Shown here in pieces: positions 32,632 to 38,322 of a stretch of DNA of 64,000 nucleotides. Position 1 is the stretch's first letter, and the number at the start of each line of letters is the position of its first letter. The notes below the pieces were generated by a model. That model saw only the letters and a list, made by a program, of their open reading frames with translations, did no database searches and was not told the DNA's origin. The translations under genes were made by a program, and so were the position numbers. Source of the DNA: Dehalococcoidia bacterium (GTDB lineage: Bacteria > Chloroflexota > Dehalococcoidia > Lucifugimonadales > SAR202-VII-2); contig OZ253584.1 in NCBI GenBank assembly GCA_965263165.1, positions 1,209,736 to 1,273,735 of the forward strand, written 5' to 3'.

Positions 32632-33848
32632 GAGACCTTTGCGTAATCCCCATTGATGCGCCGTTTGGTTGGAATGAGGGTTCTGGCGGGGATTGGGGGG
32701 CCTGATGGCGGCCTGCGGCCTGGCTCTCCTCCCCGGTCTCCCTGACTTCTCAGGGCTTCCCGGGCGCTTCCACCCCCTGCGGGCACACGCCGCCCCCGGC
32801 GGTCAGGCGGCATCCAGCAGAAGACGGTCAGCCCGCCGCAGGTTGTATGCCGCACACTTGAAGAACAGCTCCGTGGCGTTCCGCGCTAGCCCCATGTACC
32901 GCACCCGCCGGTAGCCGTAGGTCCGCTTCAGCGTCCCAAACACCTTCTCCACCGCCGACCGCTGCTGTGCTATCAGTGCGTTCCGCCGCTGCTCCCACGG
33001 CGGCAGCACCGGATGATGCTTGTCCGCCCGCCGCATGATCCGGTCCTTGATGCCCAGGGACTTGAGCCAGGCACTCCGCTGCTTCGACCCGTAGGCCTTG
33101 TCCGCATACACCGCCGCCTCATCTCCCCTCACCAACGCCTCCGCCACTTCCGTATCGTTCACGTTGGCCGGCGTCAGCACCGCCTCCCGGATCAGCCCTG
33201 ACCCTGCATCCACCCCCACGTGCGCCTTGTAGCCGAACTGCGACACCCCCCGCTGGCGCGTGAACCGCGCATCGGGGTCGGTCTCGCTCGGCGCTCCCGG
33301 CCGCCTCCCTCGCAGCGAAGGACGCTTCGCCTGCGCCTCCACGATGGTCGCATCGAGGAGCGTCCCCTTCTTCACGAAGAGGTTGCGCTGCGCCAATTGC
33401 CGGTCCATCTCCTTGAACAGTCGCGGGGCCAAACCCCGCTCCGTCACTTCCCTGCGGAAGCGGCTGATCGTCGAGTGGTCGGGGACGGCGTCCTCCAGGC
33501 CAAGCCCCACGAACCGCTTGAACGAGACCCGGTCCCACAGCGCTTCCTCGATCGCTTCGTCGGAAGCGTCATACCACTGCTGGAGCACCATGACCTTGAC
33601 CATCACCACCGGCGGATAGCTCGGACGGCCTGACGGGGCGGCATAGATGCCCTTGACCACGTTGGCCAACTCCTTCCAGTCCAGCATCGCCTCGAGCCGC
33701 TCCAACTTCCCGTTCCGTCCGACTCGGTCCGGGAGAAGCACCTCAATGAACGACTGTCCACGTATCGTCCGGTGCATGGCTTCCCCTCCTTGGCGTTGGC
33801 TCTCCGTGCTGATTGTGCCTGACCAGAAAGAGGTTATGCAAAGGTCTC
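32632..33848 (-). mobile_element. IS5-family insertion sequence (about 1.2 kb)
   Basis: 15-bp terminal inverted repeats: GAGACCTTTGCGTAA (32632-46) versus the reverse complement of 33834-48, GAGACCTTTGCATAA (14/15). Flanked by the direct repeat GTAATC (32626-31 and 33849-54). Encloses a single transposase gene. Confidence 0.8.
32803..33777 (-). CDS. IS5-family DDE transposase
   Basis: 324 aa from MHRTIRGQSF.... Contains GRPSYPPVVMVKVMVLQQWY, DHSTISRFR, LLDATIVEA, GYKAHVGVD and VYADKAYG. Confidence 0.9.
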   Translation of the reverse strand: MHRTIRGQSFIEVLLPDRVGRNGKLERLEAMLDWKELANVVKGIYAAPSGRPSYPPVVMVKVMVLQQWYDASDEAIEEALWDRVSFKRFVGLGLEDAVPDHSTISRFRREVTERGLAPRLFKEMDRQLAQRNLFVKKGTLLDATIVEAQAKRPSLRGRRPGAPSETDPDARFTRQRGVSQFGYKAHVGVDAGSGLIREAVLTPANVNDTEVAEALVRGDEAAVYADKAYGSKQRSAWLKSLGIKDRIMRRADKHHPVLPPWEQRRNALIAQQRSAVEKVFGTLKRTYGYRRVRYMGLARNATELFFKCAAYNLRRADRLLLDAA

Positions 33849-34078
33849 GTAATCGGGGCAAGCCTCCCTCTTCCCACCCTCGTACTTGGAGGCGGCTCTG
33901 TCCCTGCCCCGTAGTCGGGGGCAGGTTAGGAAGGGGAGCCTGTCTCACAAGAGAGCGCAGGGCTGGATGTGTGCGGGTCTGTGCAGGACTGGTGTGTGGG
34001 TTGGACAGGCGAGCAGGCTATCCGAGGGGAATTATATCGAATTTTAGCCAGATTGCCCAGATGCGCCCGAAAAAACGC

Positions 34079-34107
34079 TTGACAACCATGGGCGCAGAGT
34101 GTAAAAT
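34079..34107 (+). promoter_or_regulatory. near-consensus sigma-70 promoter just inside IRL
   Basis: TTGACA, 17 nt, TAAAAT. It sits 27 nt upstream of ATG 34134, in an AT-rich patch. Confidence 0.6.
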
Positions 34108-34133
34108 GATCCCATAAAGCACAGGGGGAACGC

Positions 34134-34379
34134 ATGAGTGCATATGGATACATGGAGACAGGGCAGGGCGAGCCGGAGAGCGCAGGGACTCGGGGCATGG
34201 TCCAGGTCAGCATCTCCACCCCTTGGGGTCAGAAGAACCGGAAGCATTTCGACCACGCAGTAGCGGTTATCCGGGGCCTGGGCGGGTACTGGACGGGGCG
34301 AGTGTGGGAGATGGGAGCAGAGGACGCTGAGGTGCTGAAACAGCGAGTCCGCAGCGCCGTAACGGTAACAGTCAGCTAG
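34134..34379 (+). CDS. hypothetical protein (IS passenger 1, 81 aa)
   Basis: ORF with AGGGGGA upstream of the ATG. First gene after the internal promoter. No family recognised. Confidence 0.5.
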   Translation: MSAYGYMETGQGEPESAGTRGMVQVSISTPWGQKNRKHFDHAVAVIRGLGGYWTGRVWEMGAEDAEVLKQRVRSAVTVTVS

Positions 34380-34403
34380 TCGCAAAAAAGGAGGAGGGAG
34401 ACC

Positions 34404-34625
34404 ATGAGCAACTACTACGCAGCGATAGGGAGTGTACGGGGATGGTGTGGACACCGTCACCAGACCGAGGCAACAGCTGAGCGGTGCGCCGACAAGGACC
34501 AGAGGGACGTGAAGCACGGACACGGCGGACACGCCTACAGCGATATGCGTGTCTACGAGGTCGAGGAAGGATACCACCCCAACGGTATCTACAATCGACA
34601 GCTGAGCGTCTCGCGCGATAGATAA
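34404..34625 (+). CDS. hypothetical protein (IS passenger 2, 73 aa, His/Cys-containing)
   Basis: GGAGGAGGGAG upstream of the ATG. Contains WCGHRHQTEATAERC. No family recognised. Confidence 0.5.
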   Translation: MSNYYAAIGSVRGWCGHRHQTEATAERCADKDQRDVKHGHGGHAYSDMRVYEVEEGYHPNGIYNRQLSVSRDR

Positions 34626-34651
34626 GCAGAGAGGGTAATCGGAGACAGCGA

Positions 34652-35617
34652 ATGACACAGACAGGGCCGGGCAAATCCTACCGTCAAGGCATCAACCTCT
34701 TGGAGATCGTCAAGCGTTTCGACTCCGAGGAAAAGGCCGAGGTGTGGTTCGTAGCGCAACGTTGGCCGCACGGCGTGGCTTGCCCGGACTGCGGCTCGGT
34801 CAATGTCGCTACGGTTGCCAGCCGCAAGCCCCAGCCCTTCCGTTGCCGCGATTGCCGCAAGTGCTTCTCGGTCAAGTCAGGGACCGTCCTGCATAGCAGC
34901 AACATCCCGCTCAACAAGTGGGCCATCGCCTTCTACCTCTACATGACAAACCTCAAGGGCGTCTCCAGCATGAAGTTGCACCGCGACCTGGGCATCACGC
35001 AGAAATCGGCATGGCACATGGCGCACCGCATCCGCGAGACTCTAGCGGCCACTGGCGGCAAGTTCGCCGGGCCGGTCGAAGTGGACGAAACGTACATCGG
35101 CGGCAAGGAAGCCAACAAGCACGAGTCGAAGAAGCTCCACGCAGGACGCGGGCCAGTCGGCAAGACGGCTGTAGTCGGCATGAAGGACCGCGATACCGGC
35201 CAGATCGCCAGCCAGGTAGTAGAGTCCACGGACGCGCCTACGCTACAGGGATTCGTCCGCCGTCACACCGAGCGCGATGCTACGGTCTACACCGACGATG
35301 CACAGGCTTACGTCGGCCTACCCAGGCCCCACGAAGCGGTCAAACACAGCGTCTCGGAGTATGTGCGAGGGATGGCCCACACGAACGGCATGGAGTCGCA
35401 TTGGGCGGCTCTCAAGCGGGGCTACGACGGGGTATATCACCACATGTCGGCCAAGCACCTGCCTCGGTACGTCGTCGAATTCGAGGGCCGCCACAATCGG
35501 AGGCCCCTGGACACCGCCGACCAAATGGCAAACATGGTCAAGGGCGCGGACGGCAAGCAGCTCCGATATTCCGACCTGATAGGCCCCAAGCCCACAATCC
35601 AGCCTGCGATGTTCTAG
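34652..35617 (+). CDS. IS1595-family transposase
   Basis: N-terminal zinc ribbon CPDCGS...FRCRDCRKCFSVKSGT and DDE domain VEVDETYIGGK...VYTDDAQAY...HTNGMESHWAALKR. Confidence 0.9.
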   Translation: MTQTGPGKSYRQGINLLEIVKRFDSEEKAEVWFVAQRWPHGVACPDCGSVNVATVASRKPQPFRCRDCRKCFSVKSGTVLHSSNIPLNKWAIAFYLYMTNLKGVSSMKLHRDLGITQKSAWHMAHRIRETLAATGGKFAGPVEVDETYIGGKEANKHESKKLHAGRGPVGKTAVVGMKDRDTGQIASQVVESTDAPTLQGFVRRHTERDATVYTDDAQAYVGLPRPHEAVKHSVSEYVRGMAHTNGMESHWAALKRGYDGVYHHMSAKHLPRYVVEFEGRHNRRPLDTADQMANMVKGADGKQLRYSDLIGPKPTIQPAMF

Positions 35618-35628
35618 GAGGGCAACCA

Positions 35629-35880
35629 ATGCCACGCCGGAAGAAAGAGCGGGGGCGCCCGATGCGGACGGGCTACCCGCCGCGCATGGAAGGGACGGCA
35701 GAGGAACTTGCCCAGGCTATGCTATCCCTACCCGCCGACCATCAGTGGGAATATGAGAAGGGCAGCAATCCCAGCCGCATGATCTATCGGTGCGCGGACT
35801 GCAACCGCGAGGTCTACTACCCTGAGACGCTGTACCGAGACGGACGCTGCGAAAGCTGCCACGAGGCCGCCACCGCGTAG
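35629..35880 (+). CDS. hypothetical small zinc-ribbon protein (IS passenger 3, 83 aa)
   Basis: AGGAGG lies 7 nt upstream of ATG 35629. Basic N-terminus RRKKERGRP; CADCNREV...CESCH. Ends 18 nt before IRR. Confidence 0.5.
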   Translation: MPRRKKERGRPMRTGYPPRMEGTAEELAQAMLSLPADHQWEYEKGSNPSRMIYRCADCNREVYYPETLYRDGRCESCHEAATA

Positions 35881-35928
35881 GTGGAATCAAACGAGTTGGC
35901 TAAGATTGTATATAATTCCCTATCCGAG

Positions 35929-36290
35929 GGTGAGGGCCATGCTTGAGAGGCCCGGCCCCAAGGGGTAAGGCCGAAGAAGGACCGCCTCCACGCCTTCTGC
36001 AGGGTGCGCAGGTTGAACGCCACCGCCAGCAGCGACCACTCGCTGCGGACGGCCTCGACCCCGCGCACCAGGAAGCGGCGCGCCCCCTGTTGCTCCTTTA
36101 CGATGCCGAACACCGGCTCCACGAGCTGTTTGCGCAGGCGGTAGGCGGCCCGGGCCTCCGGCGTCTCCATCCAGCGGCGGTGGGACTGGAGCGCAGCATC
36201 GTGGAGCGACACCTCGATCCGGCGACCTTTCTTGATCGTCGTGCAGAGGCCGCAGGCGGCGCAGGCGCCGCACGGGGCTCGCGCTACCCT
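35929..36290 (-). pseudogene. 5'-truncated IS1182-like transposase relic (C-terminal ~120 codons), interrupted by the IS1595-family element
   Basis: CGACAACGLCTT...GRRIEV...AAYRLRKQLVEPVFGIVKEQQGARRFLVRGVEAVRSEWSLLAVAFNLRTL matches the IS1182-type C-terminal pattern as I recall it. The frame resumes at 34018 and reaches a stop at 33945-47 once the insertion and one TSD copy are removed. Confidence 0.6.
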
Positions 36291-36310
36291 TGACGTGAGG
36301 GAACCCCCGC

Positions 36311-38322
36311 TTGTGCTACGCTTACGTTGGTTCCTATCGCCGGAGACCCCCTTTGCGAACGCTCGCGCTCCTCGCCTTGATGCTCCTCGCGTTCGCCGCA
36401 TGCCAGTCCGCGCCGCCCACCGGCACTTTCGCGGACCCCGGCGCGCCTCCCACGCCCACCCTTGCGGTCACCCCGCCGCCTACCCCAACCGCCCCGCTCG
36501 CGCCATCCCCGCTGCCTACCCCTGCCGATACCCCAACTCCTACACCGACGGCTACCGCTGTCCCAACACCGACAGCGATGCCAACCGCTACCGCTACCCC
36601 AACGCCTACGCCTACGGCAACCGCCGCGCCCGCGCCAACCCCAACCCCCAGGCCCACGCCCATCCCTACGCCGACGCATAGACAACTCGCCACCGCCGCC
36701 CTCTCCCCCTACCTCTCCTGGTTCAGCTCGCCGTCGGGAGGGGAGTTTTGGCGCATGATGGAAGCGCTCACGAAGATTTGGGTGCTGGACCCCGAGATCG
36801 GCGTTGCTGCTGCGCAGATGCCCTTCTACGACGGCAGCATCACCTATAACGATTATCACGCCCTGGAGGCCCTCGTCACCATCGCCGAGGCCGACCCGGA
36901 CCTGGCGCTGGCTCTCACCGGCTTCCCCTGGTTCGCCGACGGCATACCGGACGAGCGGAGCCCCGTAGCCACAGAGCGCCTGGCGATTGAGTTTCTGGCC
37001 AGGATAGCTCAGGCAAGACCTGGGCTGGCGGCGACGCTCCAAGCCAATGGCTGGTTCGCCGACACTCCGACCGCACGCGAAGCACAGGTGCTCGCTTCCC
37101 TCGCTCGCTTTGCCGAGAAACACCCGAACTTGGCCGCCGAGACGGCGGGGGCCCCTTTGAAGATCGGAGGCGTCGTGGGATATGGATATGGGCGGAATGC
37201 GATTGAATTGCTGCATACATTGGCCGACTGGAATCCGGAGCTCGCGCGCCAGATGCTCGCCTACTTTTCGGAAGAGCCGTTCCGAAACCGCAACTTCTCC
37301 ATGCTGCGCAAGGTGAGCGGTATGAGTTCGGGCAACTCGGACATAACGCGCTTGGAGCGCCTCGTCGCCCAACCCTGGTTCGCCGATGGATTGAATGCGG
37401 AGGAGCGAGCGCTCATCACCGTTCTACGCTTTGGCGGCCAGCAGGCTGACGACCTGATGACCTCCCCATTCTCGCGCTCGGCGGTCATATCGCTGCCCCT
37501 GGCCGGCGAGGTCAATCTCTGGGCGTTCCGGCCCGACCCCTTCCCTCCCGACACCGTGATCGGCGGCAACGTGCTGGAAATGATGGAAGAAGCCGTGCGC
37601 GGCGCCGAGCAGGTGACGGGAGTCCCGTTCCCCACGACCGACGTCATCCTGCTGATCGTTGACCCGGAAAGCCTTGGATTTGCCGGACATTTCAACGGAG
37701 ACCACTTCGTAATCGGGCGGCACATGGAGGGCACCGTGTTCGTAGACCTTGTCTTCCATGAGATAGGCCATTACTACTTCAACTACTTCCACTTCGCGCA
37801 GACCTGGCTCGTCGAGGGGGGGGGGCTGAGCTCGTACACGCGTATGTGAAAGACCGGATAACCCAGAGATACCTTGAGTATCTTGTGCAACTGTCGCCGG
37901 GCGACCCACTTCCAGACGTTCCATTTAGATTCCTAGTTCCCGTTGCAGATCCGAAAGACTACGAGACACTGGAGAACCTGCTGCGCCGCGACGCTGAGAG
38001 CCTTCAGGACCCAAACGGCTGCGGGGCGTTTGAGAACATTCACGCGTTGAGGATCCCCGACCATCCGGCTAGGGGGGAGGCATTTCCCTGCTCCTACGTC
38101 TTCGGCCGGCACCTGCTCCTGAGCCTGCACAACCTGTTTGGGGAAGCGGCGTTCTCGTCGGCCCTGCAGGAGTTGCACCCGCTGTCTCTCGACTCACCCA
38201 GGCCGACCGAGGAAGAGATATACGGCGTATTCCTCAAGCGCACCCCGCCCGGCCTCGAACAGCGGTTCCGCGCCCTGTACAAGCGGGTCCACGGCGGGCC
38301 TTTCCTCAACGCCGGGAGCTGA
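36311..38322 (+). pseudogene. lipoprotein gluzincin (M1-like HExxH...E) metallopeptidase, split by a frameshift in a G10 tract
   Basis: ORFs 36311..37849 and 37846..38322 are collinear. TTG start, signal peptide plus FAAC lipobox, Pro/Thr linker. HEIGH followed by WLVEG, where the frame breaks at 37816-25. Confidence 0.7.

Follow-up and report, generated by a model that had tools for sequence, protein, structure and literature searches.

We describe here a complete 1,894-bp element of the IS1595 family at positions 34027-35920 of a 64,000-nucleotide stretch of DNA from a Dehalococcoidia bacterium (contig OZ253584.1; the whole stretch is called the window below), together with the clade of related elements to which it belongs. 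IS1595 elements are textbook single-gene insertion sequences (IS), and the element in the window holds four genes on one strand: two small open reading frames (ORF1 and ORF2), a transposase gene, and a third small reading frame (ORF4) next to the right end. We put at roughly 0.7 the probability that this is a complete and probably still mobile IS of the kind termed transporter IS (tIS), with non-transposition genes between its terminal repeats, and that ORF4 is part of its core. The features of the element are as follows.

34019..34026, no strand: left copy of the 8-bp target-site duplication, TATCCGAG
34027..34049, + strand: left terminal inverted repeat (IRL), GGGAATTATATCGAATTTTAGCC
34079..34107, + strand: sigma-70-type promoter TTGACA-17-TAAAAT, matching at 11 of 12 positions
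34134..34379, + strand: ORF1, 81 aa, orphan passenger ORF
34404..34625, + strand: ORF2, 73 aa, passenger gene with a conserved YYAAIGxVRGWCGHRH...C motif
34652..35617, + strand: transposase, 321 aa, with N-terminal zinc ribbon and DDE domain, full length
35629..35880, + strand: ORF4, 83 aa; basic AT-hook-like arm (KKERGRP) followed by a short helix and a C4 zinc ribbon
35898..35920, - strand: right terminal inverted repeat (IRR), reverse complement GGGAATTATATACAATCTTAGCC
35921..35928, no strand: right copy of the 8-bp target-site duplication, TATCCGAG

A first-pass annotation of this DNA had proposed an intact IS1595-family element within a perfect 8-bp duplication, and both parts of that proposal are borne out. 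The 23-bp ends match each other at 20 of 23 positions, and a degenerate inverted-repeat (IR) pattern allowing up to three mismatches is found at two sites in the 64-kb window, IRL and IRR themselves, with none expected from shuffled sequences. The same TATCCGAG is present on both sides, at 34019-26 and 35921-28; the identical flanking string is 11 nt long (CTATCCGAGGG), and not 8, because it overlaps with the GGG/CCC ends, and the symmetric solution is an 8-bp duplication. The further proposal of a recent insertion is a suggestion drawn solely from the intactness of this duplication. Within the 64-kb window the element is present in one copy, and no second copy, miniature inverted-repeat transposable element, or solo IR was found there; internal IR remnants were not found at the cargo junctions of the element, and an Rfam scan of the element returned no RNA families.

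The transposase passes in Pfam and NCBIfam alike. It matches DDE_Tnp_IS1595 (PF12762) at 1.3e-37 over positions 3-153 of 153, Zn_ribbon_IS1595 (PF12760) at 4.5e-08 and 33.4 bits (cut-off 25.4) over residues 25-70, and the NCBIfam equivalog transpos_IS1595 (NF033547) at 2.3e-53 and 181 bits (cut-off 75), and the features of IS1595 membership looked for are all found together, namely the DDE_Tnp_IS1595 domain, the N-terminal zinc ribbon, and short IRs with an 8-bp duplication. Annotated transposases in the plasmid collection reach no more than 46% identity to that of the window, the nearest being called 'IS1595 family transposase' and nothing finer, and exact-protein look-ups with the window transposase and ORF2 gave no matching record. 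The reading frames of 81, 73, 321, and 83 aa are present as annotated, all on the + strand, and the 83-aa product contains the CxxC...CxxC motif (C55, C58, C74, and C77). GC content at third codon positions (GC3) is 0.73 for ORF1, 0.69 for ORF2, 0.80 for the transposase gene, and 0.79 for ORF4, compared with 0.48-0.60 in overlapping antisense ORFs; one of these, a 204-aa ORF at 34044-34658 (- strand), was considered as a real gene and ruled out by its GC3 of 0.60 and the homology of the + strand ORFs. Strong Shine-Dalgarno sequences had been claimed for all four genes; AGGAGG-type sites are seen at ORF2 and ORF4, ORF1 has GGGGGA, and the site at the transposase gene is a weaker GGAGA.

Scanning of species-representative genomes with the window transposase gave 80 loci (designated by L numbers), nearly all of them in metagenome-assembled genomes (MAGs) of Dehalococcoidia/Chloroflexota, with transposase identities of 59-84%. 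About 60 of the 80 have clear GGGAATTAT... ends, mostly with 22/22 matches, and the related elements range from 1,392 to 4,723 bp in length, so that every one of them has at least 400 bp beyond a minimal IS. A perfect 8-bp duplication is present in 48 related elements (L002-L071), in which mean GC is 19% for the duplications and 59% for the 1-kb flanks, a strong preference for AT-rich targets on the part of the clade. The length of the window transposase equals that of the 88-91% identical transposases in L084, L085, and L093, and the IRL sequence is the same as that of the sister element L093.

The place of ORF4 in these elements is what sets it apart from the other small reading frames. It starts 11 nt past the transposase stop codon, and its GGAGG site overlaps that stop. 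A family hidden Markov model finds ORF4-like genes in 40 of the 80 genome loci, and ORF4 is present in every close relative examined (L081, L084-L087, L092, and L093). In about 24 related elements no other gene separates it from IRR, and its stop codon falls 32-49 bp short of the outer end of that repeat (the distance is 40 bp in the window). The cargo of relatives sits behind the transposase gene and ahead of ORF4. The same position is kept by a short form of 50-60 aa, which has the RGRP arm and helix only. The ratio of nonsynonymous to synonymous substitution rates (dN/dS) is 0.07-0.11 for ORF4, equal to that of the transposase (0.09-0.10), and the pairwise identities of the two proteins are correlated (Mantel r=0.50, a value reached in 2 of 2000 permutations); ORF4 co-diverges with the transposase. 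ORF4 is thus a partner that the transposase has conserved throughout the clade, and probably not a passenger. All three small ORFs had been annotated as passengers, a description that suits ORF1 and ORF2, which are missing in the closest sisters, and does not suit ORF4.

The ORF4 family is unannotated. A word-indexed search returned 103 clusters, none with a functional name (one is a 'hypothetical protein') or a Pfam domain, and a profile search of 1.84 billion representatives returned 216 members, nearly all of 45-120 aa. The few longer matching proteins are fusions with IS1595 transposase fragments or with HNH (P0239 is an HNH-ORF4 fusion). In the representative library the ORF4 N-terminal domain is also matched in 13 separate stretches of a 1,524-aa protein (P0124), whose Pfam matches are repetitive and spurious-looking, and which may be a tandem-repeat artefact or a mis-assembly. 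Searches of ORF4 against Pfam, NCBIfam, PHROGs, and PADLOC gave nothing significant, with weak zinc-ribbon matches only; tblastn against cultured phages and plasmids gave no match, and neither did the ORF4 profile against IMG/VR. That ORF4 is a duplicate of the transposase N-terminus was considered and ruled out (hhalign probability 1.7%).

The family consensus, MPRRKKERGRPxKxxYPPRIDATPEExAQAMFxxPxDHxWEY...YRCxDCxREVxYPETLYRDGRCExCH, combines two recognizable parts. At the N-terminus, residues K5, K6, G9, R10, and P11 of the KKERGRP arm are conserved in at least 90% of 51 aligned members, and the arm has the R-G-R-P core and basic flanks that identify an AT-hook sequence. At the C-terminus the CxxC knuckles C55/C58 and C74/C77 make up a C4 zinc ribbon, with strands flanking both in the AlphaFold2 (AF2) model, and C55, C58, P65, C74, and C77 are invariant. 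The model as a whole (predicted local distance difference test score, pLDDT, of 74) consists of a disordered basic arm, a short helix, the zinc ribbon, and a C-terminal helix, and the ORF4 profile has weak matches to the Rpo12/RpoP and eS27 zinc ribbons (E 0.002-0.003). AT-hook or 'GRPR' arms that bind in the minor groove are found in HMGA proteins, Hin invertase, and Tc1/mariner transposases. ORF4 resembles these in having the R-G-R-P core with Lys/Arg flanks at its extreme N-terminus in at least 90% of the family, and both the ends (AATTATAT) and the targets (19% GC) of the clade are AT-rich, although the motif is called from sequence only and is short enough for convergence.

The promoter region provides a second line of comparison among the elements. 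In relatives with the transposase gene right behind IRL, the order is IRL, a few bp, TTGACA, 17 bp, (GGC)TAAAAT, CCATAAA, about 25 bp, and ATG. A homologous IRL..TTGACA..GGCTAAAAT..CCATAAA..ATG layout is found in L002, L007, L011, L014, L018, and L019, and the promoter lies about 30-45 bp 5' of the transposase start codon in relatives. Because the window holds the same module (TTGACA...TAAAAT GATCCCATAAAG), the next start codon is that of ORF1, and no promoter-like site was found directly upstream of the window transposase gene, we take the window promoter to be the usual transposase promoter of the clade, with ORF1 and ORF2 placed behind it. The consensus promoter that the first-pass annotation credited to the element is thus there, but as the clade's ordinary transposase promoter and not as anything special; the unusual feature is that ORF1 and ORF2 lie between it and the transposase gene. 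The genes ORF1, ORF2, transposase, and ORF4 would then form one transcript.

Across the family, an inverted copy of the element's own 10-mer from the inner part of the IR (inner-IR) overlaps the promoter -10 (34091-34113 in the window). The mean match is 6.95/10, compared with 6.03 +/- 0.11 when IRs and promoters are randomly paired, and example pairs are ATTTTAGCC/GGCTAAAAT, TGTACCC/GGGTACA, and AGTAACC/GGTTACT. The signal is seen only in ORF4-bearing elements (7.52 versus 6.06; Mann-Whitney p=9e-5, kinship ignored), and the -35 box lies inside IRL in eight of 16 elements without ORF4 versus none of 25 with it. The inner-IR copy at the -10 may be an operator, which is consistent with autoregulation by ORF4 or by the transposase. 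We also note that the inner-IR motif and its -10 copy co-vary among elements, for example in L002, L007, L009, L013, L014, L018, L029, L035, and L064.

These features can be assembled into a model. As in other members of the family, the DDE transposase would bind the 23-bp GGGAATTATAT... ends, and insertion via an 8-bp staggered cut would generate the TATCCGAG duplication. Transcription would begin at the clade's usual promoter just inside IRL and proceed through the four same-strand genes as an operon. The core would comprise two genes, the transposase gene and ORF4, and we infer that the ORF4 product binds DNA as a cofactor or autoregulator of transposition, its candidate targets being the AT-rich AATTATAT termini, the inner-IR motif over the -10, or AT-rich target DNA. 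Cargo is accommodated in two slots, the first between the promoter and the transposase gene, with ORF1 and ORF2 as passengers, and the second between the transposase gene and ORF4, which in relatives holds restriction-modification systems, orphan DNA methyltransferases, and other genes.

A more ambitious form of this model is that ORF4 represents an undescribed AT-hook and zinc-ribbon family acting as an obligatory second component, either guiding the transposase to AT-rich DNA or repressing the promoter through the inner-IR operator, and that the clade is a two-gene platform with cargo slots that spreads restriction-modification systems, methyltransferases, and phage-type small genes among Dehalococcoidia and their phages. 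We hold this form of the model tentatively, and judge it somewhat more probable to be wrong than right. A number of observations weigh against parts of the basic model. Half of the 80 loci, in more distant transposase clades, lack ORF4, and IS1595 transposases in general therefore do not require it; nor is ORF4 the last gene in L004, L005, L009, L011, and L029. Compared with the PDB, its AF2 model recovers nothing beyond generic zinc ribbons (E >= 3.5). In the window the inner-IR motif is degenerate where it is copied at the -10 (7/10), the correlation between ORF4 and the putative operator ignores kinship, and the transposase itself could be what binds the motif. The operon is deduced solely from the absence of another promoter-like site, and the window target, TATCCGAG, is at 50% GC an outlier from the clade mean of 19%.

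ORF1 and ORF2 behave quite differently from ORF4, and are variable, swappable cargo; the slot that they occupy, behind the promoter and ahead of the transposase gene, is hypervariable. At the DNA level the segment 34041-34650, upstream of the transposase gene, matches nothing in the 80 genome loci. In the sister element L093 (1,733 bp, transposase 91% identical, same promoter) the slot contains two ORFs unrelated to these, one of 68 aa and one of about 44 aa, in L084 (transposase 88% identical) it contains a 115-aa ORF, and in L085 (transposase 90% identical) an HNH endonuclease gene lies between the transposase gene and ORF4. The window element thus has non-transposition genes between its terminal repeats, as a tIS does, and the annotation was correct that it carries extra genes, such IS1595 elements being already known. 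It had also been argued that the small ORFs would prove to be non-coding if other copies lacked them; sisters do lack ORF1 and ORF2, and this marks the two as swappable cargo, and not as non-coding. Neither ORF1 nor ORF2 matches a Pfam, NCBIfam, or PADLOC family.

What ORF1 and ORF2 contribute is a separate matter. One possibility, which we place on the unlikely side, is that both are functionless debris of recombination between IS elements or between an IS and a phage, tolerated since read-through to the transposase gene is unblocked. The only relative of ORF1, 89% identical, is the N-terminal 80 aa of a 349-aa ORF in a rearranged element (L081:1597-1836), and the homology stops at window position 34361, shortly before the ORF1 stop, so that ORF1 may be the 5' remnant of a longer gene; no candidate was found for it among 5.8 billion proteins, and there was no match in JGI metagenomes or in PHROGs. 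The cargo moreover reads as a two-module mosaic, the modules (34041-34361 and the part from 34389 on) being 2 kb apart in L081, where duplicated promoter modules and internal IR copies point to active recombination, and the GC3 values of ORF1 (0.73) and ORF2 (0.69) are below that of the transposase gene (0.80). However, the ORF1 frame is still open with coding-like GC3, its dN/dS of 0.41 being derived from 18 substitutions, too few to decide, and ORF2, which is intact and preceded by a strong AGGAGG site, evolves under purifying selection when compared with its homologues in phage-like contigs (dN/dS 0.22-0.30).

Those homologues are also the starting point for the suggestion, present in the first-pass annotation, that the element carries anti-defence cargo. 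ORF2 has three homologues (P0002-P0004) that are 78-82% identical, and two of these are in phage-like contigs (L082 and L083), both without an IS1595 transposase, in surroundings of capsid, HNH, LexA-like, IstB-like, and methyltransferase genes and runs of small ORFs. More distant relatives, sharing 41-50% identity, were found in three viral contigs of IMG/VR, and ORF2 is probably of phage origin. The single sequences of ORF1 and ORF2 had no match in IMG/VR, tblastn with ORF2 had none among cultured phages, and the ORF2 profile found nothing in JGI metagenomes beyond one short distant match. In its fullest form the proposal is that ORF1 and/or ORF2 are phage-derived anti-defence or host-takeover genes, expressed constitutively from the strong promoter and of benefit to the element or its carrier. 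We regard this as doubtful, the case being circumstantial: it draws on the phage-contig and viral relatives of ORF2, on its purifying selection, on a slot that is hypervariable among sisters as arms-race genes would predict, on a Pfam Acb5-family protein encoded by the phage-like contig that contains the L084 sister, and on the defence cargo (restriction-modification) of clade relatives. Location in a phage genome is not specific as to function, though, and ORF1 and ORF2 have no family match in the libraries above other than a weak, repeated one of ORF2 to phrog_33449 (E=0.0016); the AF2 model of ORF2 (pLDDT 46) is of too low quality to be used in fold comparison, and comparison of ORF2 with the degraded L081 copy gives a dN/dS of 0.88. 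Described anti-defence families gave no match to either ORF in Pfam or PHROGs, no dedicated anti-defence library having been searched.

The second slot raises a corresponding question for ORF4. Among the cargo of relatives are N6_N4 methyltransferases (often as HNH fusions), C5 and D12 methyltransferases, restriction-modification pairs of the BglII and EcoO109I types, and an integrase, together with many ORFs that resemble lipoproteins or membrane proteins. The type II pairs are complete, each consisting of an N6_N4 methyltransferase with a BglII-type or EcoO109I-type enzyme, and are located between the transposase gene and the right end, and the clade appears to move restriction-modification modules among Dehalococcoidia MAGs. 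In L002, for example, the order is transposase, N6_N4 methyltransferase, BglII-type enzyme, ORF4, and IRR. Defence-type cargo, counting methyltransferase-HNH fusions and C5 and Dam-type enzymes, was noted at L002:4006-5507, L069, L062, L074/L077/L080, L018/L020, L026, and L038, among others.

Given these neighbours, ORF4 might be a regulator or accessory of the cargo, such as a restriction-modification controller, left behind after loss of the methyltransferase. ORF4 is indeed directly 3' of a DNA methyltransferase gene or restriction-modification pair in at least 15 related elements (L002 among them), follows the HNH endonuclease gene in L085, and is fused to HNH in P0239. We nevertheless find this reading, the main rival to ORF4 as a partner of the transposase, quite improbable, because ORF4 persists without a methyltransferase and tracks IRR and the transposase: in the window, L084, L093, L004, and L060 it comes right behind the transposase gene and no methyltransferase is present, its position is fixed relative to IRR and not to the cargo, and it co-diverges with the transposase at the same dN/dS. 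Its model also lacks the helix-turn-helix of a restriction-modification controller. Finally, an addiction module was among the suggestions of the annotation, and ORF1 and ORF2 are two small same-strand ORFs side by side behind a strong promoter. That they are an addiction (toxin-antitoxin) pair stabilizing the element is nevertheless largely refuted and very improbable, because the two do not co-occur (they are adjacent nowhere outside the window and lie 2 kb apart in L081, and the ORF2 homologues in L082 and L083 have no ORF1 beside them; sister elements have neither) and because there is no conserved adjacency and no toxin or antitoxin domain or family match in Pfam, NCBIfam, or PADLOC.

Returning to ORF4 as part of the transposition core, it is useful to compare the element with known systems. 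InsA of IS1, a small DNA-binding protein with a zinc finger, recognizes the ends of the IS and acts as a repressor at the transposase promoter. ORF4 is like InsA by functional analogy only, in being small, basic, predicted to bind zinc, and the product of an IS whose family is related to IS1, and ORF4-bearing elements have the extra inner-IR motif copy at the promoter. Unlike InsA, it is a separate gene downstream of the transposase gene and not the 5' frame of the transposase, it has no detectable similarity to the transposase N-terminus, and its model has no helix-turn-helix, its DNA binding being a prediction only; ORF4 does not qualify as an InsA-type regulator.

Passenger-carrying members of the IS1595 family (tIS) have been documented (TnCentral preprint, 10.1101/2021.05.26.445724), and Siguier, Gagnevin & Chandler (2009) are cited for them in a passage of the ISsaga paper (PMC3129680). 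The window element shares with these a single DDE_Tnp_IS1595 transposase with an N-terminal zinc ribbon, short IRs, an 8-bp duplication, and non-transposition genes inside, and taken alone it is an ordinary member of the IS1595 tIS. The clade differs from them in having ORF4 at the right end as a small conserved gene alongside that of the transposase, and in that cargo lies in two defined slots, promoter to transposase and transposase to ORF4. The novelty would lie in the clade, with its core of transposase and ORF4, its defined cargo slots, and the uncharacterized ORF4 family. Within the IS1595 family, the element may belong to the ISNwi1 subgroup, whose terminal consensus ggnnatTAT the GGGAATTAT ends would fit. 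The passenger-carrying 'ISNwi1+' members span 1.75-4.75 kb with an 8-bp duplication, and the 1.9 kb of the window element would fit that range.

The surroundings of the element are an IS-rich patch in which insertions are nested or adjacent. Upstream is an IS5-family transposase gene (32803-33948, - strand; NCBIfam transpos_IS5_4, 7.8e-87), and downstream is a C-terminal fragment of an IS1182-family transposase (35929-36401, - strand); when the element is excised in silico, the reading frame of this fragment runs on through the insertion site. Beside the patch, a 512-aa ORF (36311-37849, + strand) has a long Pro/Thr/Ala-rich low-complexity N-terminus and, read from its translation, a HEIGH (HExxH-type) motif close to the C-terminus, which suggests a secreted or anchored metalloprotease.

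Three of the related loci deserve separate mention. The L084 sister element (L084:3552-5266, 1,715 bp, transposase 88% identical, duplication ATCGGAAA) is inside an 81-kb phage-like contig rich in small ORFs, among them Pfam Acb5-family and BubE-family proteins, and the clade therefore also resides in putative phage genomes. At L024:2889-6591 there are two transposase genes of the same family, the second copy (312 aa) being within the cargo region, where it precedes a methyltransferase fragment and ORF4; here one element of the family has probably inserted within another. L081:1300-5050 is a scrambled relative on a low-coverage (4x) metagenome contig, with two promoter modules, three internal IR copies, duplicated protein segments, and a transposase gene with an internal deletion that fuses residues 1-145 to ORF4. 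The scrambling could have arisen by recombination between nested copies, or could be an assembly artefact.

Cargo-carrying forms of IS1595 blur the boundary between IS and transposon. If ORF4 is a cofactor or regulator, the clade would offer a compact and testable model of a minimal DDE element gaining a second core gene, as well as a model for AT-rich target choice in GC-rich genomes and for the swapping of cargo through fixed slots in an IS. Restriction-modification systems and small genes of phage type appear to travel with the clade, both within uncultured Dehalococcoidia and into phage-like contigs, and such movement bears on the spread of defence and counter-defence genes.

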